64,000 nt of DNA from Candidatus Nomurabacteria bacterium. Lineage in GTDB: Bacteria > Patescibacteriota > Minisyncoccia > Phycocordibacterales > UBA9973. Below are positions 3,698 through 62,521 of the stretch, piece after piece (the first letter of the stretch is position 1; each line of letters starts with the position of its first letter). The stretch lies in NCBI GenBank assembly GCA_943359485.1, contig CALRHR010000001.1, forward strand, positions 51,141-115,140, given 5' to 3'. Under the pieces are notes generated by a model. It was given only the letters and a program-made list of their open reading frames with translations, was not told where the DNA came from and ran no database searches. The position numbers and the translations under genes were made by a program.

Positions 3698-3698
3698 T

Positions 3699-5491: not shown

Positions 5492-5497
5492 AAAAAT

Positions 5498-22267: not shown

Positions 22268-23910
<1,643 letters not shown>

Positions 23911-24168: not shown

Positions 24169-24185
24169 GTTATAATAAAATTATC

Positions 24186-24869: not shown

Positions 24870-24889
24870 TTTTTTGATATAATTCATTT

Positions 24890-25810: not shown

Positions 25811-25819
25811 AATTATTTA

Positions 25820-25891: not shown

Positions 25892-25931
25892 CAAGTTGCT
25901 TTACTATTTTTAGTGGATTATAATAAAAAGT

Positions 25932-47013: not shown

Positions 47014-47034
47014 TGTCAAAGGCGGGCTTTGACA
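47014..47034. repeat. REP hairpin TGTCAAAGGCGGGCTTTGACA
   Basis: A perfect palindrome that overlaps both the gyrA stop and the last codons of the RAYT ORF. Confidence 0.8.
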
Positions 47035-47642
47035 TCAAAATTCAGTGTTTGCTCTATAAAGTTTTTAGTGTCTCCAAAAGTTTCCAGTAAGAATTCTTTA
47101 CTAACTATTGGCAAGTTTCGGTCTGATGCATAATCATTATAACTACCCCACTGATATTCTTTTGGATGTTTCACTAATCCATCTTTTACTGGATTCATGT
47201 GAATATAAGATGATGTCCACATCAGCTGAGGATCGCCTTTAATAAGTACTGCCTTAAATTTGTCTTGAAAAACATGCCCAACTTTTTTATATTTTTTATT
47301 AATGTATCTAGAATAACTAGTACAAAGTTTTAACATTAATTTTGAAATTGGCATGTCTACAATTTGTTCAATTAGAAAATGGAAGTGGTTTGGCATCAGA
47401 CAAAAAGCATACAAATTAAAAGCCCCTTTTTCCATTTTAGTTATCCTGATTCTAGAGTAGGGTAGGGCAGTTAATTTTTCTTTGTTTAATTCTTCTTCAG
47501 TAAATCCCAAAGACAGTCCCAGTCTAAAGAGGAAAGCTCTATAATCCTGCTCATCGAAAAATATCTTCTCCTTATTATTGCCACGATTATAGATGTGATA
47601 AATACCACCAGGAGCAAATTCTTTAAAGTCTCTATTATTCAT
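47016..47642 (-). mobile_element. REP-associated tyrosine transposase (RAYT, IS200/Y1 transposase family)
   Basis: IYHIYNRGNNKEKIF...FCLMPNHFHFLIE...YIHMNPVKDGLV matches the HUH plus Tyr pattern. REP hairpins flank it. Confidence 0.8.
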
Positions 47643-49654: not shown

Positions 49655-50050
49655 ATGAAAAATATAAAAAAAATTCTCATAAATATCACGGCATTCCTGA
49701 TTGTATTTATGTTGCTTGTTACACCAGTATTGTCTTTTGCGTATAATATCAGGGATCCGATAGTGCCACCTTGTCCGGCGACTGGGTGTGGGTGGAATGA
49801 ATTTTTAATGCTTATAAACAATGTAATTTATTTTATTCTGTATGGTTTGGCTATGCCTATTGCTGCCATTATGTTTGCGTATGCCGGAGTTCTTCTCGTC
49901 CAAGCGCAAGGTGGGGAAGCCAAAACTAAAGCCAAAGAAATTTTCCTGAACGCTGTGTACGGCCTGGCCATAGCCGCCGCTGCCTGGCTGATAGTCAAAA
50001 CCTTACTCGCTGTGTTGGGTTACAAAGATGCCGCTTGGATTGGATTTTAG
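49655..50050 (+). CDS. T4SS-pilin-like (TrbC/VirB2-like) small membrane protein 1
   Basis: It has a signal peptide plus two TM helices. These flank the loop LLVQAQGGEAKTKAKEIFLNAVYGLAIAAAAW. Confidence 0.6.
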   Translation: MKNIKKILINITAFLIVFMLLVTPVLSFAYNIRDPIVPPCPATGCGWNEFLMLINNVIYFILYGLAMPIAAIMFAYAGVLLVQAQGGEAKTKAKEIFLNAVYGLAIAAAAWLIVKTLLAVLGYKDAAWIGF

Positions 50051-50074
50051 TGTGTGTATGTTATAATAAAAGCA

Positions 50075-50482
50075 ATGAAATTTATTAAGAAAAATTTTTA
50101 TATCATAGTACTGCTGACTTTTTTGGTTGTTATGCCTATCCTTTCTTTTGCGCAAGCTACGCCTGGCGGGAACCCTATAAGTACACCTGGTGGAAATGCC
50201 GGATGTGACCCCTCGAAGAAAATCTGCAATCCGATAAAAACCGACACCTTAAATGGCTTTATCAGGGCTATCCTTGAAGGCGTCTTCAAGATCGGCTTGC
50301 CTATTTTAGCGTTGGCATTTGTTTTTGTTGGTTTTCTGTTTGTGCAGGCCAGGGGTAATTCGGAAGAATTGACCAAGGCCAAAGATGCTCTGTTGTATAC
50401 TTTAATCGGTGCAGCGGTGATCCTCGGGTCGTGGGCTATCGCACAGCTTATCACTGAAACAGTGACCGCATTAAAACCGTAA
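50075..50482 (+). CDS. T4SS-pilin-like small membrane protein 2
   Basis: It has a signal peptide ending SFAQA and the loop FVQARGNSEELTKAKDALLYTLIGAAVILG. TATAAT lies 7 nt before the ATG at 50075. Confidence 0.6.
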   Translation: MKFIKKNFYIIVLLTFLVVMPILSFAQATPGGNPISTPGGNAGCDPSKKICNPIKTDTLNGFIRAILEGVFKIGLPILALAFVFVGFLFVQARGNSEELTKAKDALLYTLIGAAVILGSWAIAQLITETVTALKP

Positions 50483-50517
50483 GGTATGGTTGATTATTAA
50501 TAAAAATAAAAATAAAT

Positions 50518-50820
50518 ATGATGTGTAATCAAGAAGGTTTAATTGAAATGGTGTGTAGGTTGGGTGATCTTTTCAGTATTGTTGTTCCGGTATTAGTGGG
50601 CTTGGGAGTTGTTTACTTTGTCTGGGGTGTCGTTCAATATGTTATTGCTGATGATGTAGAGGCAAAGTCGAAGGGCAAAGACAGGATAATCTTTGGCATT
50701 ATCGGTTTGGCTGTGATTGTTAGTTTGTGGGGGTTAGTGTTCATTCTTACGGATACTTTTTTTGGTGTAGATGCAGGCATGGAAGGTGCCCCTGATTTTC
50801 AAGGTCTACTTCCTGAATAA
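50518..50820 (+). CDS. T4SS-pilin-like paralogue 3 (no obvious signal peptide)
   Basis: YFVWGVVQYVIADDVEAKSKGKDRIIFGIIGLAVIVSLWGLV. Confidence 0.5.
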   Translation: MMCNQEGLIEMVCRLGDLFSIVVPVLVGLGVVYFVWGVVQYVIADDVEAKSKGKDRIIFGIIGLAVIVSLWGLVFILTDTFFGVDAGMEGAPDFQGLLPE

Positions 50821-50825
50821 AAAAT

Positions 50826-51563
50826 ATGAAAAAATACGCACAAAAAATAGTAAAATTTATTCCAATACTTTTTATTTTAACCTTTGTTCCATTTTTAGTT
50901 TTTGCCCAACCCATACCCCCTTCTGCGCCTTCCGGTTTGGCTGCTGTAATAAATAAAATCAGTGCTTTGCTTAGCTCACTTCTCCCCGTACTTATTTCCC
51001 TAGGAGTACTCTATTTTATTTGGGGAGTTATTATTTATTTTATTGCTGACGATGCAGAGGCAAAGTCGAAGGGCAAAGACAGGATAATCTACGGCATTAT
51101 CGGCCTTGCTGTCATTGTCAGTGTTTGGGGACTGGTTGCCATCTTAAATCAAACTCTTGGTTTGAGTGGGAACTCTGGTTTATCTGGCGTGAGTGCTCCT
51201 TCTAGTATTTCAAATTTGGCACCCTCTTCCAATGTATTACCTTCATGTTCATATATGATAAGTAATAAACCAAAGCTGGCGAATTATCTGGAGTACTTTA
51301 CTTGTATAATTGCTCAATCAGTCATCCCACTTATCTTTGCCATAGCTGTCGTGACCTTTATCTGGGGTGCGGTAAAGTTCTTTATCATCAATGCGGAAGA
51401 GGAAGCCAAAAGAGATCAGGGCAAGCAGTTCATGCTCTGGGGTATTATTGCCCTCGCGGTGATGATCAGTGTTTGGGGTTTGGTCAAAATTCTGGGAGAG
51501 ACCGTGAATATAGATACAAACTATCTGCCTTCAGTTCAGCCGTACAGTTCATCCCGGCCGTAG
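50826..51563 (+). CDS. T4SS-pilin-like paralogue 4, tandem double-domain
   Basis: It has a signal peptide and two copies of the two-helix module (…ADDAEAKSKGKDRIIYGIIGLAV… and …NAEEEAKRDQGKQFMLWGIIALAV…). Confidence 0.55.
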   Translation: MKKYAQKIVKFIPILFILTFVPFLVFAQPIPPSAPSGLAAVINKISALLSSLLPVLISLGVLYFIWGVIIYFIADDAEAKSKGKDRIIYGIIGLAVIVSVWGLVAILNQTLGLSGNSGLSGVSAPSSISNLAPSSNVLPSCSYMISNKPKLANYLEYFTCIIAQSVIPLIFAIAVVTFIWGAVKFFIINAEEEAKRDQGKQFMLWGIIALAVMISVWGLVKILGETVNIDTNYLPSVQPYSSSRP

Positions 51564-51628
51564 CCCTTGCTTTTATTATTAGTATGTTTGTGTTAGAATT
51601 AACAGGTCGTTTATTAATTAAGTCAGGT

Positions 51629-51699
51629 ACTAGGTGTTAGGCGCTAGGCATTAGCATAAAATCAAGCTAAAGCTTAAAGTCTAAATTCCTAAAGCCTAA
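51629..51699. repeat. TAGGC-heptad palindromic element
   Basis: ACTAGGTGTTAGGCGCTAGGCATTAGC-ATAAAATCAA-GCTAAAGCTTAAAGTCTAAATTCCTAAAGCCTAA. Confidence 0.55.
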
Positions 51700-51703
51700 A
51701 AAA

Positions 51704-52090
51704 ATGAAAAATAAATTAATGGTTTTGTCGGGTTTTGTTATGGGTTTGGTTCCGGTCGTGGCGTTAGCGCAGAATACTGGTGGTACTCCTACTGTGTGTA
51801 CTGCGGGTCCTGTGACAACCTTTCAGGGTGCCTTGTGTAAAATTGGGGAGATTATGAATGCAATCATTCCGATTTTGATAACACTGGGTGTACTGTACTT
51901 TGTCTGGGGAGTTATTTCGTATGTTATTGCTGATGATGAAGAGGCAAAGTCAAAGGGACGAGACAGGATAATCTACGGTATTATCGGCTTGGCTGTTATC
52001 ATTTCTGTTTGGGGATTGGTGAAGATTTTGTCAAATACTTTTGGGCTTACAAATGTACAGCAAATTACTTTTCCGACTGTTTCTTACTAA
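51704..52090 (+). CDS. T4SS-pilin-like paralogue 5
   Basis: It has a signal peptide ending VALAQN and YFVWGVISYVIADDEEAKSKGRDRIIYGIIGLAVIISVWGLV. Confidence 0.55.
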   Translation: MKNKLMVLSGFVMGLVPVVALAQNTGGTPTVCTAGPVTTFQGALCKIGEIMNAIIPILITLGVLYFVWGVISYVIADDEEAKSKGRDRIIYGIIGLAVIISVWGLVKILSNTFGLTNVQQITFPTVSY

Positions 52091-52140
52091 TCTATAAAGT
52101 GTCGCACCAAGAATCGTGCGACATGATTTCGTAAAATCAC

Positions 52141-52488
52141 ATGAATTTATTTCTCGGTCTTTTCTCTGCCAGGGTGGCTTATGCGAGCGTTGATACCTTT
52201 ATGAATAGCGTAGGCGAGCTTATCATAAATCCGCTCATCAATTTTCTTTTTGCTCTAGCGGTGGTGTATTTTCTGTATGGCGTGTTTGAATTTCTGTCCA
52301 ATCAGGAAAATGAAGACAAGAGAACAGCCGGCAAGAGCCACATGCTTTGGGGAATTGTCGGCATCACCATCATGATGGGTGTGTGGATCATCTTTGGTCT
52401 TATTCTGGACACTTTTAACTTAAGAGGTGACATAGATGTCAGTTCAGGAGGGGTTATAAATGTGAAGTTGCCACCATACAATCCTTAA
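52141..52488 (+). CDS. T4SS-pilin-like paralogue 6 (divergent)
   Basis: VVYFLYGVFEFLSNQENEDKRTAGKSHMLWGIVGITIMMGVW. Confidence 0.5.
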   Translation: MNLFLGLFSARVAYASVDTFMNSVGELIINPLINFLFALAVVYFLYGVFEFLSNQENEDKRTAGKSHMLWGIVGITIMMGVWIIFGLILDTFNLRGDIDVSSGGVINVKLPPYNP

Positions 52489-52624
52489 TAGAGAATTCAT
52501 CTCAAGAGAATAAATTCAAATTAGAGACATAAAAAGGGCGACTTCGCAAAAGCGAAGTCGCCCTTTTAGGTTCTGGAGTCAGTTTACTTTGCACAGCATA
52601 GATCTTTTGTGGTATACTGCAACT

Positions 52625-52855
52625 ATGAAAAATATCATTCAATTTTCAATCGAAAAAGGGCAGGATGGGTATTACATTGCTACAGCAAATGATTTTGCTA
52701 TTATTACCCAAGCGAAAAATTTAGAAGATTTGTTTGTAAATATTAAAGAAGCCACCGAGCTTCACTTTGAAGAAATTTTAGAAGAAGAAACATCTCTGAG
52801 CCGCAATCCTTCAATTTTTATAAACTACGAAATGCCTATCGCGCTCTATGCCTAA
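52625..52855 (+). CDS. hicB: HicB-like antitoxin
   Basis: MKNIIQFSIEKGQDGYYIATANDF...DLFVNIKEATELHFE is UPF0150/HicB-like. TATACT (52613-52618) lies 6 nt before the ATG. Confidence 0.65.
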   Translation: MKNIIQFSIEKGQDGYYIATANDFAIITQAKNLEDLFVNIKEATELHFEEILEEETSLSRNPSIFINYEMPIALYA

Positions 52856-53090
52856 ATTAAAGCGACTTTCTGGCAAAGAAGTCATAACTTTTTGTGAACA
52901 ACACAATTTTAGTATCAGTAGACAGAAAGGAAGCCATATTAATTTGGTACGAATTGTTTCAGAGAAAAAACAAGTGGTGACCGTGCCAAATCATAAAGAA
53001 ATAGACAGAGGAACATTGCATAATATTTTCAAGAAACTGTCTTCATTCATTCCTGAAGAAGATTTAAGAAAATTTTTCTTTACTGACTAG
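52848..53090 (+). CDS. hicA: HicA mRNA-interferase toxin
   Basis: KLKRLSGKEVITFCEQHNFSISRQKGSHINL is the YcfA/HicA signature. It overlaps hicB by 8 nt. Confidence 0.75.
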   Translation: MPKLKRLSGKEVITFCEQHNFSISRQKGSHINLVRIVSEKKQVVTVPNHKEIDRGTLHNIFKKLSSFIPEEDLRKFFFTD

Positions 53091-53098
53091 GTAAAATC

Positions 53099-53140
53099 AA
53101 AAAGGCGGTCGTTCATCGCTGAACGGGTCCGCCTTTTGTT
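53099..53140. terminator. bidirectional terminator at the left edge of the GC-rich island
   Basis: AAAAGGCGG-(CGTTCA-GCGA-TGAACG)-CCGCCTTTT has T-runs on both strands. Confidence 0.65.
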
Positions 53141-53248
53141 TTGCGCGTGGGGCTCGCACGCGCGATGTTTTCATGAGCCCTCCTTTCTCCGAAGTTGATC
53201 TGCTTCGGGCAGAGACCTTCTTTGCGCTGGTCAGGCGCTCCGAGAGAA

Positions 53249-54253
53249 TTACTCCCGGATGTATACACCTGTGGCTGGGGTTGCCCCCTCGCCACAGAAC
53301 TTCCAGATCCCCGCCATCCCGATGGACGGCGGGGGGGTGGTGCCGAAGGTCTCTGTATGAGATCCTCCGTCCGGGTCAAACACCTTCATGGAGCCCCGAT
53401 CGGGACCCCACTGGCTGTTGATCCGTAGGTTCCGTTCGTAACAGCCATCTGTTCCGAACGGGTAGAGGGTGGGTGTCGGCCCTACCTTCGCGGGCGCCGG
53501 GGCTGTCGAGGCCACCGGCGTGGATGTCCGGCTACCTGCCGGTGAGGGGGGTGCGGGAGGTAACAATCCCCCAAAAAATCCACCCACTGTCTCCCGGATC
53601 TCGGTCCCGACCCGTTGGGCTACTTTGTCGCCGACTACAGCCTTTTTTGCTGTGTCGATAGCCACTGGGCCGATGCCGCGCCCCTCGGATGCCGCCTGAT
53701 CTGCTTCCTCCCACTTCGTCGTGGGGGCGGGAATCGCGGGGACCGTCATTGGCGTCGCCGACTTCGGCCGAGCCATCTCGGCCGATCGTGGCATTTCCCT
53801 TGCCACGAAAAGGGAAATCAACACTATTCCGAAGATGGTGAGCGCTGGCTTCACTCGGCCGTGTGCCGTCATTGCGGCGATCACGACCGAACAAAAAAAC
53901 AGCGCTACCCAAATTAAGATATCCGTACTGGCTGTTGGGTATAGCCATGGGCGTGGTCCCGTGGTGAGAAAGTAGCTGAAGGCGAAGTTATTGCTAACTC
54001 CGACAACAGTAGTTCCCACCATCATGACGAATGTAAGCGTAGAGAACCCGACGATGAATTTCTTCATTCCATCGGAAATTCCGCCGCCGTGTGCCGCCGC
54101 GGGTCGCGAGAGGCCGCCCCAGCCTTGGTGCTGGGCCAGCTTGTAAAGGCCGTACAGCACTCCGCCGACGATAGCGACGGTCCAGGGGTTCCAGCCGAAT
54201 GAGCTCGACACCCAATACACTCCCAGGGCCGCGATTGCAAATTTCCAAAACAT
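53249..54253 (-). CDS. GC-rich polytopic membrane protein A1 (unknown function; Pro-rich linker plus small Cys-containing C-terminal domain)
   Basis: A 334-aa ORF with an ATG preceded by AAGGAAG. Third codon positions are G/C-rich. There are about 5 hydrophobic helices, then PAIPAPTT...PPAPPSPAGSRTSTPVASTAPAPAKVGPTP. Confidence 0.65.
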   Translation of the reverse strand: MFWKFAIAALGVYWVSSSFGWNPWTVAIVGGVLYGLYKLAQHQGWGGLSRPAAAHGGGISDGMKKFIVGFSTLTFVMMVGTTVVGVSNNFAFSYFLTTGPRPWLYPTASTDILIWVALFFCSVVIAAMTAHGRVKPALTIFGIVLISLFVAREMPRSAEMARPKSATPMTVPAIPAPTTKWEEADQAASEGRGIGPVAIDTAKKAVVGDKVAQRVGTEIRETVGGFFGGLLPPAPPSPAGSRTSTPVASTAPAPAKVGPTPTLYPFGTDGCYERNLRINSQWGPDRGSMKVFDPDGGSHTETFGTTPPPSIGMAGIWKFCGEGATPATGVYIRE

Positions 54254-54545
54254 TTCATTTCTTCCTTAACTCCGTCCCCTTGACTGGGCAACATGGAGTT
54301 GGAGCAGACTGATCAGAGTACTACAACCGCTTGCGCGTTTGTCTTACTTTGAATAGTCTGCCCGCTAGGAAGCCGGATTTTTTCTCTCCTCTCCTTACCC
54401 CCTCCGCTTTCAGCACCTCCCCCTAAATAGGGGGAGGCCGGGTAGGGGTACAAAGGGGTGAGGGTTCAGCTACATGGCGGGCAAACCATTCATTTTGCTC
54501 GAAATTCTACTTACTTCTTATTTAATTTTCGAAGGTCAGCTTTAC
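54254..54545 (-). promoter_or_regulatory. ~290-nt structured 5' leader of cassette 1
   Basis: A 13-bp long-range stem (54351-54363 with 54479-54491) encloses a GC-rich variable domain. A GCAA-tetraloop hairpin lies at 54328-54337. Confidence 0.55.
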
Positions 54546-54551
54546 CTATGT

Positions 54552-54580
54552 ATTGTATCACACTTATGACAAAAAGTCAA
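54552..54580 (-). promoter_or_regulatory. promoter of cassette 1 (TTGACT-N17-TACAAT on minus strand)
   Basis: The -35 lies at 54575-54580 and the -10 at 54552-54557. The sequence is identical to cassette 2. Confidence 0.7.
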
Positions 54581-54626
54581 GCCCTTTGGGCTGAATTTGT
54601 CCTTATTTTGTAAGGTTAAAATGATA

Positions 54627-54658
54627 AAAGGGCCGCCTCAGTGAAGAGACAGCCCTTT
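54627..54658 (-). terminator. terminator of cassette 2
   Basis: On the minus strand, AAAGGGCTG...CGGCCCTTT is followed by TATCATTTT. Confidence 0.55.
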
Positions 54659-54783
54659 GTTTTGCGCTGGGCCTGTGCGCGATTTGGGCCCTGGGTTGAC
54701 GAGTCCCCGTTGCGTCACTCTGGTTTGTTCCCTCCAGACGGGAGACCTCTATTTTGTAAGCGCTGGTCAGGTGCTTTGTCTTT

Positions 54784-55281
54784 TTAGGGGCAGTACCGGC
54801 TTGCCCCCTCTTCGAGGGGGTTGAACGGCCGTTTCTTCCCGTCCTCCCCGACGATCTCGTCGGGGCAGCCGAATTTCTTGTGTTTGGGGGTCCCTACCCC
54901 CAGAATTTTGTCGACGGCCTGGTCGAGCGCTTGCCCGACAGAGACCGCCGACTTGCCGTCGCCGAGTCCAAGACTCCCGAGGACCTTGTTGATCCCCTCG
55001 AGGGCCGCGTTCCCGGCGGTCTTTCCGATCTCAAGCGCGCGCCGATTGCGCAGCGCGCGGGCCTTGGCTAGAATCGTCGGAGTGCTGTCCTCCGGATGCG
55101 CCTCGAGCCAGGCCAGCGTCTTGCTGGCCCCGTCATAGAGCGCCTTCGCTCCCTCGATTGTTGTAGCGGCTGGAGCCTTCTCCAGAGCCGCCACTTTCTG
55201 CGCCATTTTTTCTTGTCGGCTGGCGCCACAACCGACCGCCGTGAGTGCCACGGCGAGCACGAACGTCAAGAGGAAATTCAT
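54784..55281 (-). CDS. GC-rich putative lipoprotein B2 (helical, unknown function)
   Basis: The signal peptide MNFLLTFVLAVALTAVGC is lipobox-like. GGAGGGGGAGGGAAGAA lies immediately upstream. The start overlaps the upstream stop as ATGA. Confidence 0.65.
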   Translation of the reverse strand: MNFLLTFVLAVALTAVGCGASRQEKMAQKVAALEKAPAATTIEGAKALYDGASKTLAWLEAHPEDSTPTILAKARALRNRRALEIGKTAGNAALEGINKVLGSLGLGDGKSAVSVGQALDQAVDKILGVGTPKHKKFGCPDEIVGEDGKKRPFNPLEEGASRYCP

Positions 55282-56153
55282 TTCTTCCCTCCCCCTCCAA
55301 ACATTCCCTTGACTATCCACTCCAGGGGCTGGGTGACTACCTCACCCAGGGAGTGTTTGGCGGCCAACTCCCCAATGCCGCCAATCTTCCATTTCCTAAT
55401 ACCCCCGAGGACCTCGTCCCAACGGGAGCAGACGATGGCTCCGACGAGCGCTATCATCTGCCACCCGAGAACTCCCCACCCCATAGCCTTCTCCCCGAAG
55501 AGAAACGAGTTAATGGTTGCCCAAAAACCGAATTCCCCCAGGGGATCCTCGAGCGGAGTCGTTGCCACAGCCCAGAACTGGGCTTTGGCGATTTCGATGG
55601 GGTTTAGGGTTGCTGGCGCCGCGGTAGGGTCCACCCACCACAAAAACACCACCCCTAACACCATCCACACCGTCGTGCGAAGTACCCAGTTGTTGTCGCC
55701 GAGCCGGATCAGGACACTCCGCCCGATCTCCGCAGCCCCACGGCCGTGAGTCTCGATTCCCGCGAAGATGGCGAAGACCGCGAGCGTGGTCACGAGGGCA
55801 ACTAGCGTAAAGGCTGGGTAGCCGAACCAAAAACCGAAGACGATCCAGTAGAGTACTATGAACAGCGCCCCCCAGAATCCCACGGTCTTCGGCTTGATCA
55901 CTACCTCGCCTTCGTCGCAAGCGCCATCGCCTACGACTTCGGCCCTAATGATGTGTCGTCCCGGTTTGAGGTCTTTGAGCTCGAAGCTCGCGACCCCGCC
56001 TTCCGTCTTTACGGCGCGCTTGCGCTTGCCGTCGACCGAGAAACGAACCTGGACTTCTTTCTCGCCACCTTTTTTCCCGGCGGTGGCCGGCCGGTCTGAC
56101 ACGACGGCTTCCGCCACCGTGTCTTTCTCTACTAAACTCAAAGTCAAAATCAT
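55278..56153 (-). CDS. GC-rich membrane protein A2 (N-terminal beta-rich soluble domain plus multiple TM helices)
   Basis: The start is chosen at MILTLS, with TAGGAG 7 nt upstream. The hydrophobic core is FWGALFIVLYWIVFGFWFGYPAFTLVALVTTLAVFAIFAGI. Confidence 0.6.
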   Translation of the reverse strand: MILTLSLVEKDTVAEAVVSDRPATAGKKGGEKEVQVRFSVDGKRKRAVKTEGGVASFELKDLKPGRHIIRAEVVGDGACDEGEVVIKPKTVGFWGALFIVLYWIVFGFWFGYPAFTLVALVTTLAVFAIFAGIETHGRGAAEIGRSVLIRLGDNNWVLRTTVWMVLGVVFLWWVDPTAAPATLNPIEIAKAQFWAVATTPLEDPLGEFGFWATINSFLFGEKAMGWGVLGWQMIALVGAIVCSRWDEVLGGIRKWKIGGIGELAAKHSLGEVVTQPLEWIVKGMFGGGGKK

Positions 56154-56462
56154 TATCTTTCTCCTAATCAAATTTTTTCTCGAGCACACGATTCAGAATA
56201 CTACAACCACTTGCGTGTTTGTCGTTTCCTGAATAGTCTGCCCATCAATGAGCCGATGCATTTCCTCTCCCTGCGAAGGGGGAGATTTGAGAGGGGGTCT
56301 CAAGAATTACCACCCCTAGCCCCTCCTTAATCAAGGAGGGGAGGAAACATAAAATACTCAGCTTCTTAACGGGCAAACCATTCATTTCCCCGCCAGTCTG
56401 GCCGGGGTAAATTGCTCGAAATTCTACTTACTTCTTATTTAATTTTCGAGTAACAGCTTTAC
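56154..56462 (-). promoter_or_regulatory. ~310-nt structured 5' leader of cassette 2
   Basis: It has the same architecture as 54254-54545. The stem joins 56231-56243 with 56371-56383, and the GCAA hairpin lies at 56208-56217. There is an extra 24-nt hairpin insert. Confidence 0.55.
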
Positions 56463-56468
56463 CTATGT

Positions 56469-56497
56469 ATTGTATCACACTTATGACAAAAAGTCAA
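56469..56497 (-). promoter_or_regulatory. promoter of cassette 2 (TTGACT-N17-TACAAT on minus strand)
   Basis: The -35 lies at 56492-56497 and the -10 at 56469-56474. Confidence 0.7.
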
Positions 56498-56626
56498 GCC
56501 TAAATGCTCCAAAACAGCCTTATTTTACAGGCTATTTTGGGGCATTATTGACATTAGTCTTGTATTGTGTTTTTAAAAAAGTCTATAGTTCTTGTCTTAA
56601 TCTAATTCAAATGATATTATATAAAT

Positions 56627-56857
56627 ATGAACACCGTAACCTTACCCAAAAATCAATACATGCAAATTTTAAGCACTCAAGACAAATTTCAAGTGGATTT
56701 GTCTCGCTTGGAGAGAATGGTTTCTTATATGGTTCAAGATGAAGTTAGTCCGGTGTATATGACCAGACTTTCTAAGATAGAGAAAGGTCTTTCCGCTGGC
56801 AAAGGTGTTAAGTTTAAAAATAAAAGTGAACTCAAAAAATTCTTTCGTTCTTTATAG
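56627..56857 (+). CDS. putative antitoxin (partner of the RelE/ParE-like toxin)
   Basis: A 76-aa ORF lying 2 nt upstream of the toxin gene. TATTAT (56615-56620) lies 6 nt before the ATG. Confidence 0.5.
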   Translation: MNTVTLPKNQYMQILSTQDKFQVDLSRLERMVSYMVQDEVSPVYMTRLSKIEKGLSAGKGVKFKNKSELKKFFRSL

Positions 56858-56859
56858 TT

Positions 56860-57144
56860 ATGAATAATTTAGAGAAGATGAATTTTATTTTTTCTCTGGA
56901 ATTTAAAAAAATTCTAGAGAAAATGGCAAAGAAAGATAAATTAGGATTAAAAAAAATAGAAGACCAAGTATATAAAATAATCTCTAATCCACTCATAGGT
57001 AAACCTCTTCGTAATGTTATGAAAAGTTATCGACGAGTTCATATAGGGCATTTTGTTTTGATTTATAAAATAGAGAACGGAGAGATAACATTTGCAGATT
57101 ATGACCATCATGATCGCATTTATAAAAAATATTCTCTAACCTAA
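56860..57144 (+). CDS. RelE/ParE-family toxin
   Basis: YRRVHIGHFVLIYKIENGEITFADYDHHDRIY. Confidence 0.65.
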   Translation: MNNLEKMNFIFSLEFKKILEKMAKKDKLGLKKIEDQVYKIISNPLIGKPLRNVMKSYRRVHIGHFVLIYKIENGEITFADYDHHDRIYKKYSLT

Positions 57145-57145
57145 T

Positions 57146-58057
57146 ATGCTACTTTCTGCCATCATCACAATAATCGGCCTCTCGCTCTTTGAAGCAGTTT
57201 CTTCGGTTGACAATGCCATCATCAATGCGGAAGTTCTCTCGACCATGGGGGCCAAGGCACGGCGCTGGTTTTTGACTTGGGGGATGTTCATTGCGGTCTT
57301 TCTAGTTCGCGGGCTTTTACCTTTTGCAATAATCTGGGCTTTTAATACATCTCTCTCACCACTCCAAGTTTTATCTGCGGCCTGGTCTTCAGATCCGCTC
57401 GTTTTGGCGTCCATAGAAAAGTCCGCGCCGATACTCCTCGTCGCCGGGGGAGTTTTCTTGTTATTTTTATTTTTGCATTGGCTTTTCTTGGAAGAAAAAC
57501 ATTTGGGTTTGCCTATGGCAGAGAAATTCTTTATGAAGAATGGGGTTTGGTTTTATGCCACTGTATCAGTCCTTCTTTCAATTATCGCTTGGTTTGCATT
57601 AAAGGAGAGCAACCTGATGGGCTTTGGTGCTGTTGTTGGTTCCAGTTTATTTTTTATTACGCATGGTTTCAAGCAAAATGCCGAGGAGCAAGAAAAAAAA
57701 CTGCTCGGGTCGGCACACTCTGATCTCTCCAAGCTTTTTTTCTTGGAAATAATTGATACTACATTTTCTATCGATGGTGTGCTCGGCGCTTTTGCTTTTA
57801 CTCTTTCGGTGCCACTCATTCTGCTTGGCAATGGTTTCGGAGCGCTCTTGGTGCGGGAGCTGACGATTCGCAATATCGAACGAATAAAAAAATATGTTTA
57901 TTTAAAAAATGGGGCGATGTATTCCATTCTGGTTTTGGGGATGATTATGATACTGCACAGCTTTGGGTTTCACATACCGGAATACGCTTCGCCACTTTCT
58001 ACTTTTATCATTATTGGATTCTTTTTTTGGAAGTCGCGAAAATCGTTGCAGGTGTAG
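57146..58057 (+). CDS. DUF475 / TerC-like integral membrane protein
   Basis: LFEAVSSVDNAIINAEVL is followed by multiple TM helices. Confidence 0.6.
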   Translation: MLLSAIITIIGLSLFEAVSSVDNAIINAEVLSTMGAKARRWFLTWGMFIAVFLVRGLLPFAIIWAFNTSLSPLQVLSAAWSSDPLVLASIEKSAPILLVAGGVFLLFLFLHWLFLEEKHLGLPMAEKFFMKNGVWFYATVSVLLSIIAWFALKESNLMGFGAVVGSSLFFITHGFKQNAEEQEKKLLGSAHSDLSKLFFLEIIDTTFSIDGVLGAFAFTLSVPLILLGNGFGALLVRELTIRNIERIKKYVYLKNGAMYSILVLGMIMILHSFGFHIPEYASPLSTFIIIGFFFWKSRKSLQV

Positions 58058-58200
58058 TTTTTGAGAGGCCTTTCGCAGGTCGTTCGACTCTGAGAGTCTC
58101 AGACTCGATGAGCCGACGGGCCGAGAAGTTCGCTCCGCAAGCTTGCGGAGACAGATTGCCTATCAAAAACTATACCAAGAAAGATTTTCACAACTAAAAC

Positions 58201-58228
58201 AAAAAAATCCCCGAGCGGGGATTTTTTT
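58201..58228. terminator. bidirectional terminator
   Basis: AAAAAAATCCCCGAGCGGGGATTTTTTT. Confidence 0.75.
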
Positions 58229-58235
58229 GTTTCGG

Positions 58236-58745
58236 TTATGCATGCTTTAGGGGTGTGTCGTGATAGTTTTGCTCTCCGCGGAATACCCTCCTAACTAAGA
58301 TGACTATCAAGAGAATTAATATCGCAAGAAGAATCCATTGAACAAGCCCAGAAGGCATGAAACTATTTGAACCATAGATGACATTGGCAGCAAGTTCTTT
58401 GACATCTTCCGCAGTCTTGACTGGTTCGTCGGCAGTAGAAGTTGTGGCAACTTTGTTCGTAGCAGGCGCTGCTTTTCTCACGGTAGTCGTAGTGGTAGTT
58501 GCCTGTGGAGCATAAGCGTTAGTATTTCCTGAGTAAATAGTAGGCGCGTCGGAATACTCAGTATTAGTATTTACTCCCGCAGAATTGTCTCGTACAGTAG
58601 CCCACTTAGTGCTGTTGTAAGGGGTAACATACCCGGCTCTGTCGGCACTTGCTTCTGTGGGTACAAACATGACCCCTAGAGCCAAAATAGTGAATGCTTG
58701 TAAGCCATAAAATGCTATATTTAATTTTTGATTATATTTATTCAT
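58236..58745 (-). CDS. hypothetical secreted protein with C-terminal TM anchor
   Basis: It has a signal-like N-terminus, a poly-Thr tract and the C-terminal helix WILLAILILLIVILV. Confidence 0.5.
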   Translation of the reverse strand: MNKYNQKLNIAFYGLQAFTILALGVMFVPTEASADRAGYVTPYNSTKWATVRDNSAGVNTNTEYSDAPTIYSGNTNAYAPQATTTTTTVRKAAPATNKVATTSTADEPVKTAEDVKELAANVIYGSNSFMPSGLVQWILLAILILLIVILVRRVFRGEQNYHDTPLKHA

Positions 58746-58783
58746 ACTTATAGTATAGCATATATAAAAACAAATGTCAAGTT

Positions 58784-59653
58784 TTAACGGCTCCTGCTGC
58801 CACCTTGAGGATTTCGACGTCCTGAAGAACTGTCAGCACTGCGAGTTTGCGGAGAAGTAGTAGTTCTTTCTGCTCCTCCCGTTCCTCCTGTTGTTCCCAT
58901 TGTGCCCGTTCTTGCCTTTGTTCCTGTGCGTGCGGGGCTCCCAGTGTGTCCAATGCTTCCAGTGTGTCCGGTGTCCACTCGATTTCGAATCACTCCAGGT
59001 CTATATACAACTCCTCGGCTTCCATAACCACTCCTATGAATGATCACTGGACGAGAAGCGTCTGCTTGTTTCTTTGCAACACCAGCTGCAATTTTAGCTA
59101 ATTTCTCGTCATGTTTTAATTGCGCCTTTGTTTTTTCGCTAGTTGTTAATTCAGATATCAAGTTGCCATCAGCATCGTACTTTCTTTTTAAAGCACCTCT
59201 TCCGGCAGCTACTTTTTCAGTATTAGCTGTGGTAAAAAGTTTTTCATCGTCTTCTTGAGTTCTAGATAATTTTTCTTCATCTTCATCTTCAGCTTTAGCT
59301 ATTTCTACATCCGCTTTCGCCAAAGCAAGTGCCTTTTCAGCTGCTTGAATATCAGCTTTATTTTCTGGATCTTCCTTAGCAACACTAAGGTCATAGGTAG
59401 CTTCCACAACAGCTTTTTCAGCTTTAGCAATAGCTGCCTTACTTGCTTGCATTTCTGGAGACAAAAAAGTTCCTGCTGCTATGGCGGCAGTAGCGAATTT
59501 TCTTCCAATTCCGCTATGATTATTTTTAGTTCTTGCTATTTCTCTAGCCCTCAGCTCTGAAGCTGTTAACTCCGTAGTTCCTTCTTCTGGAATAAATTCA
59601 CGTCTAGAACCTCCTATATTTTCCATTCCCATAGTATTTTTAGTTTCAGCCAT
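58784..59653 (-). CDS. hypothetical protein (Ala/Lys/Glu-rich helical region, Gly/Thr/Arg-rich tail)
   Basis: A 289-aa ORF. No motif recognised. Confidence 0.45.
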   Translation of the reverse strand: MAETKNTMGMENIGGSRREFIPEEGTTELTASELRAREIARTKNNHSGIGRKFATAAIAAGTFLSPEMQASKAAIAKAEKAVVEATYDLSVAKEDPENKADIQAAEKALALAKADVEIAKAEDEDEEKLSRTQEDDEKLFTTANTEKVAAGRGALKRKYDADGNLISELTTSEKTKAQLKHDEKLAKIAAGVAKKQADASRPVIIHRSGYGSRGVVYRPGVIRNRVDTGHTGSIGHTGSPARTGTKARTGTMGTTGGTGGAERTTTSPQTRSADSSSGRRNPQGGSRSR

Positions 59654-59810
59654 AGGTCATCGACTCTGAGAGTCTTAGACTGATGAGCTGATCCGCCTTT
59701 GGCGGAAATTATTAATAAATTAAACTTTCCTAAATTATACTTTATATTGCAAGATTTTACAACCTTATACTAAGATAAGTGTATTATGGTATATAAAACC
59801 TTTTTGTCAA

Positions 59811-59895
59811 TGGTGCTGGAGGGGGGACTCGAACCCCCAAGCCTTGCGGCACTAGTTCCTAAGACTAGCGCGTATACCAATTCCGCCACTCCAGC
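59811..59895 (-). tRNA. tRNA-Leu (anticodon UAG), CCA encoded
   Basis: The reverse complement reads GCTGGAGTGGCGGAATTGGTA...CTAGT-CTTAGGA-ACTAG, then a long variable arm, GGGGGTTCGAGTCCCCC and CTCCAGCACCA. Confidence 0.9.
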
Positions 59896-60036
59896 GTCTT
59901 TTCAAATATACTTCGTATTTGAAATTTCGATTCACGAAACCGACGCTGGAGTGTCGGCCTCCTCACTTTGTTCGGATGAAAAATAAAGCAGTTTATTTTT
60001 CATCCACTCCAGCTTCTAAAGTGCTCATGCACTTTG

Positions 60037-60109
60037 TGCGTCCAGAAGGGATCGAACCTTCGACCTTATCCTTAAGAGGGATCTGCTCTACCAGCTGAGC
60101 TATGGACGC
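60037..60109 (-). tRNA. tRNA-Lys (anticodon CUU)
   Basis: The reverse complement reads GCGTCCATAGCTCAGCTGGTAGAGC...CTCTTAA...GAAGGTTCGATCCCTTCTGGACGCA. Confidence 0.9.
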
Positions 60110-60251
60110 AAATATATTCAATTTTAAAACAAGACTTTACCATTAATAATCTTTCGACCTACCAAAACAGCTATGGACGCAAATATATTTAATTTTTAAA
60201 CAAGACTTTACCACCAACAATCTAACGATTTACCAAAACAGCTAAGGGCGC
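60098..60251. repeat. 71-bp tandem repeat duplicating the tRNA-Lys upstream region plus the first 12 nt of a tRNA
   Basis: AGCTATGGACGC occurs at 60098 and 60169, and AGCTAAGGGCGC at 60240. The intervening ~59 nt are about 85% identical by eye. Confidence 0.75.
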
Positions 60252-60292
60252 ATGTTTAATTTTCTAAAATAATTACAAATTTATAATTATTC

Positions 60293-60377
60293 TGGTGCTC
60301 GGGATGGGAGTCGAACCCATACCCCTTACGAGATTCGATTTTAAGTCGAACGCGTATACCAATTCCGCCACCCGAGC
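60293..60377 (-). tRNA. tRNA-Leu (anticodon UAA), CCA encoded
   Basis: The reverse complement reads GCTCGGGTGGCGGAATTGGTA...TTCGA-CTTAAAA-TCGAA, then a long variable arm, ATGGGTTCGACTCCCAT and CCCGAGCACCA. Confidence 0.9.
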
Positions 60378-60570
60378 AGTTGTCTAAGTCTAACTGAAAA
60401 AAGTATTTTTTTCAATCCCTATTTACAGATTACATATCAGGTTATATAATATTCAGATGAGTATGGAAACTTCCGATCCCCAACTATCATTAGGAAATTC
60501 TGAGCTCTTGGAAGACCTAAAGTCACTCGTTGCTAAAAGATTATAAAAAATGAGATAGTATATTATTTAT

Positions 60571-61089
60571 ATGTCGGAAAAACTATTCAAAAGTGTCCCT
60601 AGTGCAGTTATTGAGAGAACTGAAATGGGTATGGTGGGACAAGTAAGAGAACTCGTAAGATTGATTCTTTGGGATAAAGTTCTGCGCGATAAACTTGTAG
60701 ACAATCCAATTGGAAAAGAAGGTCTGGATGCACTCAAGAGGCTCGGCAAAAATTTTTCTATTGTTCTTGCGGATAGTGTCCCCGTCTTAGGATCCGTTGT
60801 TCATTGGAGTGCAGATGTCTTAAAATTATCAAAACATGATGCAACTCCGGATGTTTCCAAATTAACAGCATGGGGAGCAAATATAATTGATGTATTAACT
60901 CTTGATACTATTCCCTCATATTGGATTCAAGCAGCTCTTCAATTGAGAAAAGATCTACCTAAGCTTCAGGCATTATTGAAACTTATTCAGAAGATACGCA
61001 CAGAAGAGATGGAAGATTATGAGGAAAATCAATCTCAAGTTGATGGTGCAATAAGAGTTTTTGGCACCGAAGAAAGAGATGAAAAATAA
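60571..61089 (+). CDS. hypothetical protein
   Basis: A 172-aa ORF. TATATT (60559-60564) lies 6 nt before the ATG. Confidence 0.5.
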   Translation: MSEKLFKSVPSAVIERTEMGMVGQVRELVRLILWDKVLRDKLVDNPIGKEGLDALKRLGKNFSIVLADSVPVLGSVVHWSADVLKLSKHDATPDVSKLTAWGANIIDVLTLDTIPSYWIQAALQLRKDLPKLQALLKLIQKIRTEEMEDYEENQSQVDGAIRVFGTEERDEK

Positions 61090-61092
61090 AAT

Positions 61093-61323
61093 ATGGATAA
61101 AAAAGAAGCTTTAAAAATACTTATAGAACACAGTTTTGTCTTCACTAAAGATGTGCAAGAAAAATTGATTGCGGGTATTCCCGCTATGACTTTGCGAGAT
61201 GTTGATGCTCTGGGCAAGCTTTTAGCGTCACTAAAACAAAAGAGTATTATTTCTTATGATGCTGACATGAAGAAAATAAATCAAATGATTTTGGTGGTTG
61301 AAAAAGAAAAGGGAAGTGTCTGA
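61093..61323 (+). CDS. hypothetical protein
   Basis: A 76-aa ORF lying 3 nt after the upstream stop. Confidence 0.45.
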   Translation: MDKKEALKILIEHSFVFTKDVQEKLIAGIPAMTLRDVDALGKLLASLKQKSIISYDADMKKINQMILVVEKEKGSV

Positions 61324-61341
61324 TGTTTTTCTGTTTCTTTG

Positions 61342-61413
61342 AGGCGTGGGTGGGAATCGAACCCACGCATGTCGGTTTTGCAGACCGAAGCGTTACCATT
61401 TCGCCACCACGCC
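61342..61413 (-). tRNA. tRNA-Cys (anticodon GCA)
   Basis: The reverse complement reads GGCGTGGTGGCGAAATGGTAACGC-T-TCGGT-CTGCAAA-ACCGA...GTGGGTTCGATTCCCACCCACGCCT. Confidence 0.88.
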
Positions 61414-62133
61414 TTTTAAATGAAAATCGATTATTTTTCTAATTTTCCTATCAACAACCTTTGGTCGTAATTCAAAGTAGTTATTGAATATTTTAAATTT
61501 TCGCATAAAAAATGAATTAATGCTAGTGCCTTTGTATATTAGTTTGAATATTTGTAGAGAATCTTTTGTGTTGTATATTGCTTGGAAAGATCTCTTACTT
61601 GAATAAATTTTACCTTCTTTAATCCCAATTTTTCTAAAAACATGATTCATTTTTTCAAGAAATATTTTACTACCACTAGTAAATATCACACGAACCCTTT
61701 TTATTATTAATTTTTGGGTTTTACCTTTGGTTTGTGCAAAGTGAACACATCCATCTCCATCAAAATATCCCCTCATAAAATGACCTAAGTATTTTTGTGG
61801 AACTTTTGGGAACTTTATAGTTAGAGATTTGTTTGGATATAGACCTAATCTAAAAAGGTCATTGTATATTTTATGACTACCTATTCTTAACGCAAAGCAA
61901 ACTTTTCCTCTGATAAAATTCGACCTTTTCTGGTTTGTTTTGTGTTCTGAACCCAACCATGTTTTTATTCTTTCTATGGAATCTTTATCTGTGCTAGCTA
62001 TTTGGATATATTTACCACGCATATAAGGTGAATCATCCAAACTTCCATCAGCATAAATATATCCCAAAACATAGGCCATATTCGGGGACCATTTTTCGAA
62101 GAATTTTTCATTAACTTTATATTTTATTCCCAC
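61393..62133 (-). CDS. LAGLIDADG-family homing endonuclease-like protein (double motif)
   Basis: Two motifs are present: LGYIYADGS and MRGYFDGDGC. The start is GTG with TATAAT 6 nt upstream. The last 21 nt overlap tRNA-Cys. Confidence 0.75.
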   Translation of the reverse strand: MGIKYKVNEKFFEKWSPNMAYVLGYIYADGSLDDSPYMRGKYIQIASTDKDSIERIKTWLGSEHKTNQKRSNFIRGKVCFALRIGSHKIYNDLFRLGLYPNKSLTIKFPKVPQKYLGHFMRGYFDGDGCVHFAQTKGKTQKLIIKRVRVIFTSGSKIFLEKMNHVFRKIGIKEGKIYSSKRSFQAIYNTKDSLQIFKLIYKGTSINSFFMRKFKIFNNYFELRPKVVDRKIRKIIDFHLKGVVAKW

Positions 62134-62173
62134 TTTTATATTATAAGTGGTAATTAATTATACTGCAACTTGA

Positions 62174-62494
62174 TTACTTTTCTCGTAGCAATTCGTCAAT
62201 TTTTTGGCGGTTTTTTTCACCCAGATCAATGGCAATGTCGACAAAGGGGATGGTCTTGACGGGCATGTTTTTTTTCAAGTATTCCCGCAGTTCTGGTCTT
62301 TTGCGTTTGGCAAATTCTAGCGCGGTTTTTTCTTTTGAATCTGGAAGTACTGTAATAAATATCGTTGCCCGTTTTAAGTCGGGGGAACAGGTGGCGGCTA
62401 TCACGGTAATAAGTGAAGTTTTATTGTTTTCTCTTCCCAAAAAAATTGCCGCTAATTCTTTTATTTGATTTGCAACTTTATTATTTCTCTCCAT
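62174..62494 (-). CDS. rbfA: ribosome-binding factor A
   Basis: RNNKVANQIKELAAIFL...ATIFITVLPD is an RbfA-like pattern. It lies downstream of infB, in conserved synteny. Confidence 0.8.
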   Translation of the reverse strand: MERNNKVANQIKELAAIFLGRENNKTSLITVIAATCSPDLKRATIFITVLPDSKEKTALEFAKRKRPELREYLKKNMPVKTIPFVDIAIDLGEKNRQKIDELLREK

Positions 62495-62521
62495 AATTTT
62501 AGATTAAGAATGTTTAAAAAA

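Follow-up and report, generated by a model that had tools for sequence, protein, structure and literature searches.

Two GC-rich transcription units beside a pilin array

This study concerns a GC-rich island in a 64-kb window of a Patescibacteria chromosome (64,000 nucleotides of ~38% GC, the whole stretch of DNA that was analysed), which we compared with about 20 related loci, given L numbers below where they have to be told apart. The island is made up of two minus-strand transcription units, each with a promoter, a leader of ~300 nt, protein-coding cargo and a trailer. Leader and trailer form a dedicated RNA frame around each unit, which is kept across the clade with at least two sets of cargo. 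At the left edge the GC content rises from 0.31-0.36 at 52.6-53.1 kb to 0.58-0.66 at 53.1-53.8 kb; it is 0.42-0.46 between the units at ~54.5 kb, again 0.58-0.66 at 54.8-56.1 kb and 0.29-0.33 beyond 56.4 kb, with the remainder of the window lying at 0.32-0.45, the 16S rRNA gene excepted. The features are listed here in the direction of transcription, followed by the facing pilin array (aa, amino acids; GC3, GC content at third codon positions; SD, Shine-Dalgarno; ORF, open reading frame; T4SS, type IV secretion system).

56469..56497, minus strand: unit 2 promoter, TTGACT-N17-TACAAT with a TG extension, identical to the unit 1 promoter
56443..56450, minus strand: unit 2 boxA-like element CUCGAAAA, inside GCUGUUACUCGAAAAUUAAAUAAG, at a fixed position
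56231..56386, minus strand: unit 2 long stem, 5' arm GAAUGGUUUGCCCGUUAAGAAGCUGA, 3' arm UCGGCUCAUUGAUGGGCAGACUAUUC, 101-nt GC-rich apical insert
56157..56222, minus strand: unit 2 distal leader, GNRA-type hairpin ACAAACACGCAAGUGGUUGU (56203-56222) and SD-like site AGGAGAAAG (56157-56165)
55278..56153, minus strand: ORF of the 291-aa membrane protein of unit 2; GC 0.59, GC3 0.72
54784..55281, minus strand: ORF of the 165-aa lipoprotein of unit 2, lipobox ...LTAVGC; GC 0.64, GC3 0.77
54610..54783, minus strand: unit 2 trailer, hairpin box AGCACCUGACCAGCGCU (54760-54771), AAAUCGCGC...GCGCAAAACAAA element (54656-54690) and intrinsic terminator (54627-54658)
54552..54580, minus strand: unit 1 promoter, identical to the unit 2 promoter
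54526..54534, minus strand: unit 1 boxA-like element CUUCGAAAA, at +17, the position it has in other leaders
54351..54494, minus strand: unit 1 long stem, arms as in unit 2, 89-nt GC-rich apical insert with the palindrome CCTCACCCCTTT
54254..54342, minus strand: unit 1 distal leader, hairpin ACAAACGCGCAAGCGGUUGU (54323-54342), another GC hairpin and SD-like AAGGAAG
53249..54253, minus strand: ORF of the 334-aa membrane protein of unit 1; GC 0.60, GC3 0.67
53097..53248, minus strand: unit 1 trailer, hairpin box (53224-53235), short ORF, GCGCG...CGCGCAAAACAAA hairpin (53135-53165) and terminator AAAAGGCGG...CCGCCUUUUU (about 53100-53140)
49655..52488, plus strand: six-gene VirB2-like pilin array (PF18895 T4SS_pilin), convergent on the units

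Both promoters read TTGACTTTTTGTCATAAGTGTGATACAAT, a sequence that occurs twice in the window where 0 matches would be expected, and both are the best sigma-70-like sites of the region (10/12 plus an extended -10). The promoter-proximal repeat of the two units spans 89 nt at 96% identity, with its four differences in one cluster, and the leaders have two additional blocks in common, one of 62 nt at 81% and one of 30 nt at 87%. An earlier reading of this DNA, made from its sequence only, had pointed to the composition jump, the two minus-strand units with their shared promoter, ~300-nt leaders and trailers, and the promoter-proximal near-identity broken by one patch; it had also named the six-gene pilin array, the hicBA and ParE-type flanks, the lipobox protein and the ATGA overlap within unit 2, and had judged the cargo of the two cassettes to be unrelated. 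All of this was confirmed. The main proteins of the two units are unrelated (hhalign probability 1.3%), and simple duplication of the units is ruled out on that ground.

The 334-aa protein has a conserved N-terminal half with four transmembrane segments, in which VSNN and RPWLYP are invariant, a basic, Pro-rich linker and a variable, Cys-containing C-terminal beta-sandwich that is replaced outright in several members of the family. This C-terminal domain is modelled with a pLDDT (predicted local distance difference test score) of ~85 by AlphaFold2 (AF2) and is found alone in about 80 clusters of small anchored proteins; the whole protein would be a membrane-anchored stalk bearing a variable disulfide beta-sandwich. 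The same sandwich also matches, as repeats, two fibre-like proteins of 951 and 1134 aa. The 291-aa protein combines an N-terminal Ig-like beta-sandwich (AF2 pLDDT ~70-76, the remainder being poorly modelled) with a helical transmembrane domain, and its 7 homolog clusters carry conserved motifs. Its stop codon is overlapped by the start of the 165-aa ORF as ATGA, and the product of the latter has a signal peptide followed by LTAVGC, where homologs have lipoboxes LCAGC, VACN and SVACG. In relatives, homologs of the 165-aa protein always lie behind a 29x-aa gene.

Searches with the cargo proteins against Pfam, NCBIfam, PHROG and PDB sequences returned nothing significant. The proposal in the sequence-only reading that they are VirB6/TrbL-like and VirB7-like partners of the pilins was thus not borne out at the level of homology: the 334-aa and 291-aa proteins have no sequence or profile similarity to the TrbL/VirB6/PrgH families, and the 165-aa protein none to the VirB7 family in Pfam, NCBIfam or PHROG. 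VirB7 is about 50 aa long, and the 165-aa protein is about three times that. VirB4 and VirD4 are absent within about 15 kb of the units, and likewise in L018 and L011. A word-indexed search of 5.8 billion proteins recovered 12 homolog clusters for the 334-aa protein, 7 for the 291-aa protein and 6 for the 165-aa protein, and about 45 full-length relatives of the 334-aa family emerged when 1.84 billion representatives were searched by profile. Source labels of the homologs read 'Patescibacteria group bacterium' or 'Candidatus Paceibacterota bacterium'; a relative is present in 1 of 185,579 species-representative genomes, and a viral contig scan yielded no relatives of the cargo proteins.

Further neighbours of the island are HicB/HicA and a ParE-family pair, and genes for a methyltransferase, a solute-binding protein and TerC also lie nearby. 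Elsewhere in the window we noted an IS200-like Y1 transposase between gyrA and the methyltransferase gene (47016-47642, minus strand) and a free-standing LAGLIDADG-like ORF beside tRNA-Cys (61393-62079, minus strand).

The abrupt GC boundaries of the island coincide with repeats, as they would in an assembly chimera or contamination in which GC-rich segments of another organism had been joined by repeated AT-rich segments. This explanation is effectively refuted by a contig from another assembly (GCA_965045245.1 at NCBI), which equals window positions 52555-64000 at 100% identity and spans every GC boundary. A Logan unitig is also continuous from the pilins via hicBA into the 334-aa gene, Logan unitigs end exactly within the 89-nt repeat, as is expected of a true repeat, and at about 20 loci from unrelated samples these GC-rich genes are again flanked by the same AT-rich neighbours. 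We consider the chance of a chimera to be negligible.

Wherever the flank is long enough the locus is convergent on a VirB2-like pilin array (L005-L008, L011, L017-L020 and L022-L025), and in longer contigs synteny extends on one side to S1, a beta-lactamase-fold protein, gyrA, the methyltransferase, the solute-binding protein and six pilins, and on the other to infB-rbfA. This constant adjacency argues for a functional link between cargo and pilins. The most plausible role of the cargo proteins is that of partners to the pilins at the surface or in host contact. An mRNA resistant to the neighbouring toxins (HicA or ParE/RelE) was considered as well; toxin-antitoxin genes are not constant neighbours, being absent in L007 and L011. 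The gene order 29x-aa, 16x-aa, 33x-aa is conserved, and the 'two cassettes' thus normally form a single gene trio, which in the window, L005, L006, L010 and L015 is divided by a second leader. That leader is missing in L007, L011, L014 and L017, in which the genes are joined by a short GC hairpin only.

A search of relatives for the same promoter, leader and trailer, which the sequence-only reading had proposed, found the frame around other cargo at the same site in L018, L019, L020 and L022-L025. In this alternative cargo (GC 0.54-0.60), a putatively SPFH/Band_7-like membrane protein of 273-317 aa is paired with a ~133-aa protein. The latter has an anchor at its N-terminus and a Pro-rich stalk, and it shares its C-terminal beta-sandwich with the 334-aa family. 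The 309-aa and 317-aa proteins are mutually orthologous (45% identity) and unrelated to the 291-aa family; the 273-aa protein of L020 has a precomputed match to PF01145 and a weak match to HflK (E 1.7e-4), far below the cut-off, and the 309-aa ortholog of L018 has no Pfam match.

Two leaders of one genome resemble each other more closely than they do their orthologs, at 96% over 89 nt in the window and 91% over 200 nt in L015. In L013 (2758-3437), compared with L015 (1-282 and 1911-2506), a 33x-aa gene stands behind a hybrid leader and the 29x/16x unit is missing. From its sequence L013 looks like a leader-to-leader deletion from an L015-type locus, the alternative being an assembler skip across the repeat. 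Two further features of these loci were seen in passing: an insertion-sequence (IS) transposase of the rve family is inserted between the two GC-rich units of L005 (2155-3102), and upstream of the L018 unit (643-7706) there are an N6/N4 methyltransferase, a serine recombinase and a 1346-aa TPR protein, with a tRNA gene at about 7780-7890. The latter region may be an integrated element or defence island at the border of the locus.

The leader and trailer RNA

Leaders of the related loci follow a plan of five parts, namely the promoter, a box, a long stem, 1-2 GC hairpins and a purine-rich SD-like site. The promoter architecture GGCTTGACTTTT...TAyAmT is kept in relatives, and a box of the form YYUUGAAAAY or CUUUGAUAA keeps a locked position, +12 to +21 nt downstream of the -10 box, in 13/13 leaders, including those that have no stem.

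For the long stem a covariation test was run on an alignment (A7) of nine alignable leaders, the unit 1 leader of the window among them. The stem is a 24-bp helix with one 2x2 internal loop, and hence near-continuous double-stranded RNA (dsRNA); 93.5% of its cells are paired versus 26-44% in slid controls, compensatory double changes are seen at 8 pairs, and its covariation score was reached by 0/500 shuffles. Mismatch types are unequal, with G·U exceeding A·C by 25 to 9, and a covariance model built on the stem (R1) gives the sense strand 2-25 bits more than the antisense. The surplus of G·U over A·C and the sense-biased scores indicate that the stem is selected at the RNA level, and they disfavour a DNA-level inverted repeat or MITE (miniature inverted-repeat transposable element) as its origin. 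The same model matches the unit 2 stem (60.2 bits, E 1e-14), picks up copies in L022, L023 and L025 on which it had not been trained, and finds no further copy of the stem elsewhere in the window. When whole leaders were folded and compared with shuffles, unit 1 had z = -5.3 and unit 2 z = -6.3.

The tip of the stem is variable. It is short (4-13 nt) in L010, L005, L006 and L018, GC-rich and palindromic (46-101 nt) in the window, L015 and L005, and in L007 it is enlarged by 392 nt that include a separate promoter and an ORF of 107 aa. The presence of this ORF inside the apical loop shows that the tip tolerates insertions. The ORF itself (L007, 545-868) is AT-rich and encodes a coiled-coil protein, with a promoter-like sequence, between stem arms at 460-472 and 891-903. 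The palindrome CCTCACCCCTTT lies within the tip in the window (54452-54463) and upstream of the promoter in L010 (1050-1061) and L018 (8741-8752); as a side observation, the palindromic element CCTCACCCCTTT...GGAGAGGGG... behaves as a movable hairpin of the REP (repetitive extragenic palindromic) or MITE type. Two leaders, L020 and L010_up271, are stemless and still have the box, a GC hairpin and the SD-like site. Below the stem, a GNRA-type hairpin is common to both units of the window and differs between them by a compensatory A-U/G-C change.

At the 3' side, a box CCTGACCAGCGC is placed 12-13 nt past each stop codon (53224-53235 and 54760-54771), and GCGCAAAACAAA adjoins each terminator (53135-53146 and 54656-54667). 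In relatives the stop codon is followed by (U)GUUCUUU...GAAAGGAGGUG, by a 4-6-bp GC stem with the loop CUGrCCA, and by a GCAAAAGGGC...GCCCUU terminator; the trailer hairpin reads GCGC-CUGrCCA-GCGC, with a compensatory variant GCGU...ACGC. The unit 1 trailer also has an SD-like GAAAGGAGG and an AUG that opens a 25-codon basic ORF (53097-53174, minus strand).

A very strong SD-like GAAAGGAGGUG(AUC) was noted in the trailers of the window, L005, L006, L010, L015, L017, L018 and L022. It is the perfect complement of the canonical 16S tail and often stands 5-7 nt before the AUG of a short basic ORF that overlaps the terminator. A conserved small trailer ORF was considered and rejected on inspection, since the frame differs between loci.

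Scanning the whole window with Rfam 15 at the gathering threshold returned rRNA and tRNAs only, with no leader or trailer family, and the top hit of a permissive scan of the island was ftsZ-DE at 26.8 bits versus a gathering score of 72.2. The leader is thus a new conserved RNA element, absent from Rfam.

Translation signals, mRNA structure and the age of the GC excess

The 3' tail of the window's 16S rRNA (23898-23911) reads GGAAUAAUUCAAUU where the Rfam consensus reads GGAUCACCUCCUUU, and the canonical CCUCC anti-SD is missing. ACCTCC and CCTCCT are absent at 22,000-26,000, and no near-match to GATCACCTCCTT exists in the whole window. The 16S gene (22266-23911) is 1646 nt long versus a model of 1533 positions and probably holds one or more insertions. 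Ordinary genes of the window carry an SD-like 4-mer upstream in 3/50 cases versus a 12% background, and many of them have, as a raw observation, a TATAAT-like box a few nt before the ATG. Judged from the sequence, this suggests a genome that is largely SD-less, with short leaders or none. Much the same holds for the low-GC genes of related loci (SD-like sites upstream of 7/110). The GC-rich ORF calls have an SD-like site in 16/17 cases with duplicate loci counted, the lone exception being a spurious antisense ORF, and the chance rate of such a site in island sequence is 21%. In their SD-like sites and long leaders, then, the units look foreign to the genome that carries them.

The cargo messages are also unusually structured. 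Folding z-scores were calculated for 150-nt windows of 8 genes from 5 genomes, covering both cargo types. Against dinucleotide shuffles the mean z was -1.98 for the island and -0.01 for the flanks (Mann-Whitney p 1.5e-11); against synonymous-codon shuffles, which keep the protein and the codon usage, it was -1.58 and -0.05 (p 8e-7), and against codon permutation -2.02 and +0.04 (p 6e-9). The antisense strand of the island gave -1.14 versus -0.2 for that of the flanks (p 0.003), and the sense strand is thus the more structured of the two. Natural GC-rich genes served as a comparison: GC-matched E. coli genes had z of -0.59 under the synonymous shuffle and -0.63 under codon permutation, and mycobacteriophage L5 genes -0.88 and -0.89. 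At the gene level the island lies beyond both (p = 4e-4 and 2e-4). Seeing that the GC-matched natural genes are also negative, mRNA structure as a full explanation of the GC-richness was only partly upheld.

The compositional anomaly of the window cargo (GC 0.59-0.64 versus ~0.38; GC3 0.67-0.77 versus 0.21-0.48) recurs at all of the loci, where cargo GC is 0.51-0.67 versus 0.30-0.47 in the flanks and cargo GC3 0.60-0.85 versus 0.21-0.61 in adjacent genes, an excess of about 0.2-0.4. Amino-acid composition was rejected as the cause, GC3 being the most elevated codon position. Between genomes synonymous sites are saturated in cargo and flanks alike (proportion of synonymous differences, pS, 0.62-0.75). 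The corresponding nonsynonymous proportion (pN) of the cargo, 0.33-0.36, lies below pS, as expected of real genes under purifying selection. The cargo evolves faster than the pilins, the solute-binding protein and gyrA, with a nonsynonymous divergence (dN) of 0.43-0.49 versus 0.12-0.33 in the flanks. Since the GC excess has been kept despite saturated synonymous divergence, it is old and maintained and not merely un-ameliorated. The locus also lacks the marks of a recent island: there are no homologs beyond the clade, it is syntenic in all related loci, and its divergence is not below that of the flanks. A single ancestral import should have ameliorated over such a distance, and no donor lineage is detectable. 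With the excess kept in spite of saturation and no homolog outside the clade, recent import from a high-GC source is unlikely.

A proposed expression frame, its rivals and known systems

The explanation that we favour, at a probability of roughly one half, is that these are units specific to a clade of Paceibacterota-type Patescibacteria, in a dedicated expression frame for the highly structured mRNAs of pilin-associated surface proteins, possibly with antitermination or processing like that of rRNA operons. GC-richness would serve, or go together with, a message of unusual structure and probably long life, and the leader would supply what such a transcript needs in an otherwise SD-less and largely short-leadered genome. 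By analogy with boxA and the Nus factors of rRNA operons, the likeliest function of the leader would be processive antitermination combined with cleavage of the RNase III type in the long stem, whose 24 bp make it a plausible substrate. Together the two activities could let RNA polymerase cross a hairpin-rich, weakly translated message and could set the stability and translation of that message.

Several pieces of published work fit such a scheme. BoxA antitermination protects long, structured, poorly translated transcripts from Rho, and the boxA consensus varies from phylum to phylum (PMC7665894); NusB-NusE has a dsRNA site contiguous with its BoxA site (PMC3177189); and members of the Candidate Phyla Radiation are reported to keep RNase III, RNase J and PNPase (PMC12641178). 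The boxA of E. coli, UGCUCUUUAACAA, resembles the leader box. So does the spacer element GTTCTTTGAAAACT of Mollicutes, which we take to be a spacer boxA. The paper in which that element appears as a conserved spacer sequence does not itself say so (PMC3019172). Within the window, candidate counterparts are CUCUUUGACAAAAG in the rRNA-operon leader (21974-21987) and UUUGAAAACUAU in the 16S-23S spacer (23909-23920). As a side observation separate from the box, the rRNA-operon leader (22091-22131) and both unit leaders (54494-54567 and 56414-56484) have four collinear exact blocks in common, ATAAGTGTG, GGTAAAG, TAAATAA and GAGCAAA.

A number of observations weigh against this explanation, or against parts of it. 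Antitermination and processing are roles that we infer. The boxA-like motif is short, the likeness spanning about 8-11 nt, and the window boxes CUCGAAAA and CUUCGAAAA depart from the CUUUGAAAAC of relatives; YTTGAAAAY is not enriched in the AT-rich window (19 matches versus 12.5 expected), and local alignments of the box with the window's own rRNA-operon leader and spacer are no better than those of shuffled sequences. With a short box, no enrichment in the window and a similarity within the range of shuffles, support for antitermination is weak. The stem is dispensable for some units, given that the leaders of L020 and L010_up271 lack it. A ribosome without an anti-SD leaves the reading of the SD-like sites unexplained. 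Natural GC-rich genes likewise fold below their shuffles, so that the structure signal is partly generic, and that generic part fits foreign ancestry equally well. Finally, the cargo models are weak overall (pLDDT 60 and 49) and have no family matches.

Among the rivals, a mobile cassette system strikes us as unlikely. Leader and trailer would here be recombination handles, through which GC-rich cargo is exchanged, duplicated and deleted at a hot spot beside the pilins, and the GC-richness would be a property of a shared gene pool and not of the resident genome. The sequence-only reading had likewise proposed cargo swapping through the conserved ends, and a part of that proposal stands. In favour of a cassette system, two unrelated cargo sets occupy one frame at one chromosomal site; leader copies are homogenised within a genome (96% over 89 nt in the window, 91% over 200 nt in L015); L013 equals L015 less one unit, the junction falling within the leader; loci differ in their number of leaders (L007, L011, L014 and L017 being without a second one); IS and toxin-antitoxin insertions lie around or within the locus; and in several members of the 334-aa family the C-terminal domain has been swapped. 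What does not agree with it is that the cargo sets number only two and the gene order is fixed, that no integrase, relaxase, other recombinase or att-like site is consistently adjacent, and that no GC-rich reservoir was found in a plasmid, phage or other taxon. The divergence of the cargo is moreover large and as saturated as that of the flanks, with no sign of recent transfer; the G·U asymmetry and the sense bias of the covariance model point to selection on RNA and not on a DNA site, and the L013 junction is possibly an assembly skip over the repeat. Another suggestion of the sequence-only reading was that the envelope genes had come from a high-GC organism, possibly the host, and were kept under native expression signals. 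As a rival explanation this would mean a donor that uses SD sites, acquisition once or repeatedly, and composition, codon usage, ribosome-binding sites and mRNA structure that are still of donor type. It would explain the anomaly in GC and GC3, the SD-like sites and long leaders atypical of this genome, the sign of the folding z-score, which natural GC-rich genes share, and the toxin-antitoxin and IS elements close by. We nevertheless hold it to be improbable, and the suggestion is not supported in the form in which it was made: searches of 5.8 and 15 billion proteins, of 185,579 species genomes and of metagenome and viral contigs found no homolog outside Patescibacteria; synteny, GC and GC3 have persisted across lineages of saturated synonymous divergence (dS) without amelioration; the conserved unit includes the promoter and leader, which are AT-rich and specific to the clade; and both types of cargo share the GC excess.

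The strong, conserved and covarying structure of the 5' untranslated region, together with possible alternative pairings of the GC hairpins upstream of the SD-like site that were seen on inspection of relatives, would also suit a metabolite- or protein-sensing riboswitch or attenuator over envelope genes, of which the stem would form an aptamer or expression-platform part. We think this decidedly improbable, as there is no Rfam match, the stem is a simple rod whose tip takes inserts of 4-392 nt, with no multi-helix junction or conserved unpaired core, and it is missing altogether in some units. More speculative still, and in our view very improbable, is that the units look 'foreign' because they are made for expression in another, GC-richer and SD-using host cell after T4SS-linked transfer. 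Its basis is the combination of GC-rich codons, SD-led genes, a generic sigma-70 promoter, mRNA structure, an own 16S rRNA without an anti-SD and adjacency to pilins. The units would be a bacterial analogue of the Agrobacterium T-DNA, delivering genes or stable, structured mRNAs so as to place parasite membrane proteins in the host envelope, with leader and trailer acting as transfer or stability signals.

The observations matter in several respects. An anomaly of GC, GC3, ribosome-binding sites and mRNA structure that is kept at one syntenic site implies that something actively maintains it, and the island is a counter-example to the routine inference that a GC-anomalous island reflects recent horizontal transfer. 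The covarying leader stem and the 3' hairpin make up a new RNA element that can be searched for by covariance model; to our knowledge, almost no cis-regulatory RNAs are known in this phylum. Conserved SD-like sites in an organism without a 16S anti-SD present a puzzle of translation. The cargo adds a set of clade-restricted envelope proteins, unnoticed before, that are invariably linked to VirB2-like pilin arrays, which are thought to underlie the epibiotic lifestyle of Patescibacteria.

Arrays of 2-11 VirB2-like genes have been described in Patescibacteria, where they are variable and, in one Saccharibacterium, essential (Microb Genom 2025, PMC12102498); our units always abut one such array. 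In those parts of that paper that were available to us, the GC-rich partner genes, leader and trailer are not among the T4SS components searched, and the cargo has no VirB family match. The units have parallels in several other systems. Like rRNA-operon leaders and BoxA-led CRISPR arrays, they have a strong promoter, a U-rich element of the CUUUGA(A/C)AA type within about 20 nt and a long helix, and precede a long, GC-rich, structured transcript in an AT-rich genome; as in rRNA operons, one leader serves several genes where the second leader is missing. In contrast to rRNA operons, the downstream RNA codes for protein and no leader-trailer helix bracketing the cargo was found. RfaH with ops, LoaP and the EAR RNA offer another likeness, that of a dedicated 5' leader in front of compositionally atypical, horizontally mobile envelope clusters; unlike those, the units have no ops or EAR sequence or Rfam match and no RfaH/LoaP-type gene was seen alongside, and with 1-1.4 kb of coding sequence they are short.

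Integron cassettes are similar in being short tandem modules with conserved ends, variable cargo and recombination between the ends. They differ in that our units have their own promoter and leader, that the structured element which they share lies on the 5' side and is under selection as RNA, and that only two cargo sets were found, at one fixed locus; nor are there attC or attI sites or an integrase among the neighbours, and the 3' hairpin, with a 4-6-bp stem and a 7-nt loop, is not a structure of the attC type. With a classical genomic island the locus has in common the abrupt break in GC and codon usage, toxin-antitoxin and IS neighbours, and tRNA genes a few kb off, whereas its conserved synteny without amelioration, the lack of a known donor and a promoter and leader native to the clade set it apart. 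Of known kind here are thus a leader-controlled envelope operon and a compositional island; what is new is the RNA element and a 'foreign' signature that is maintained.

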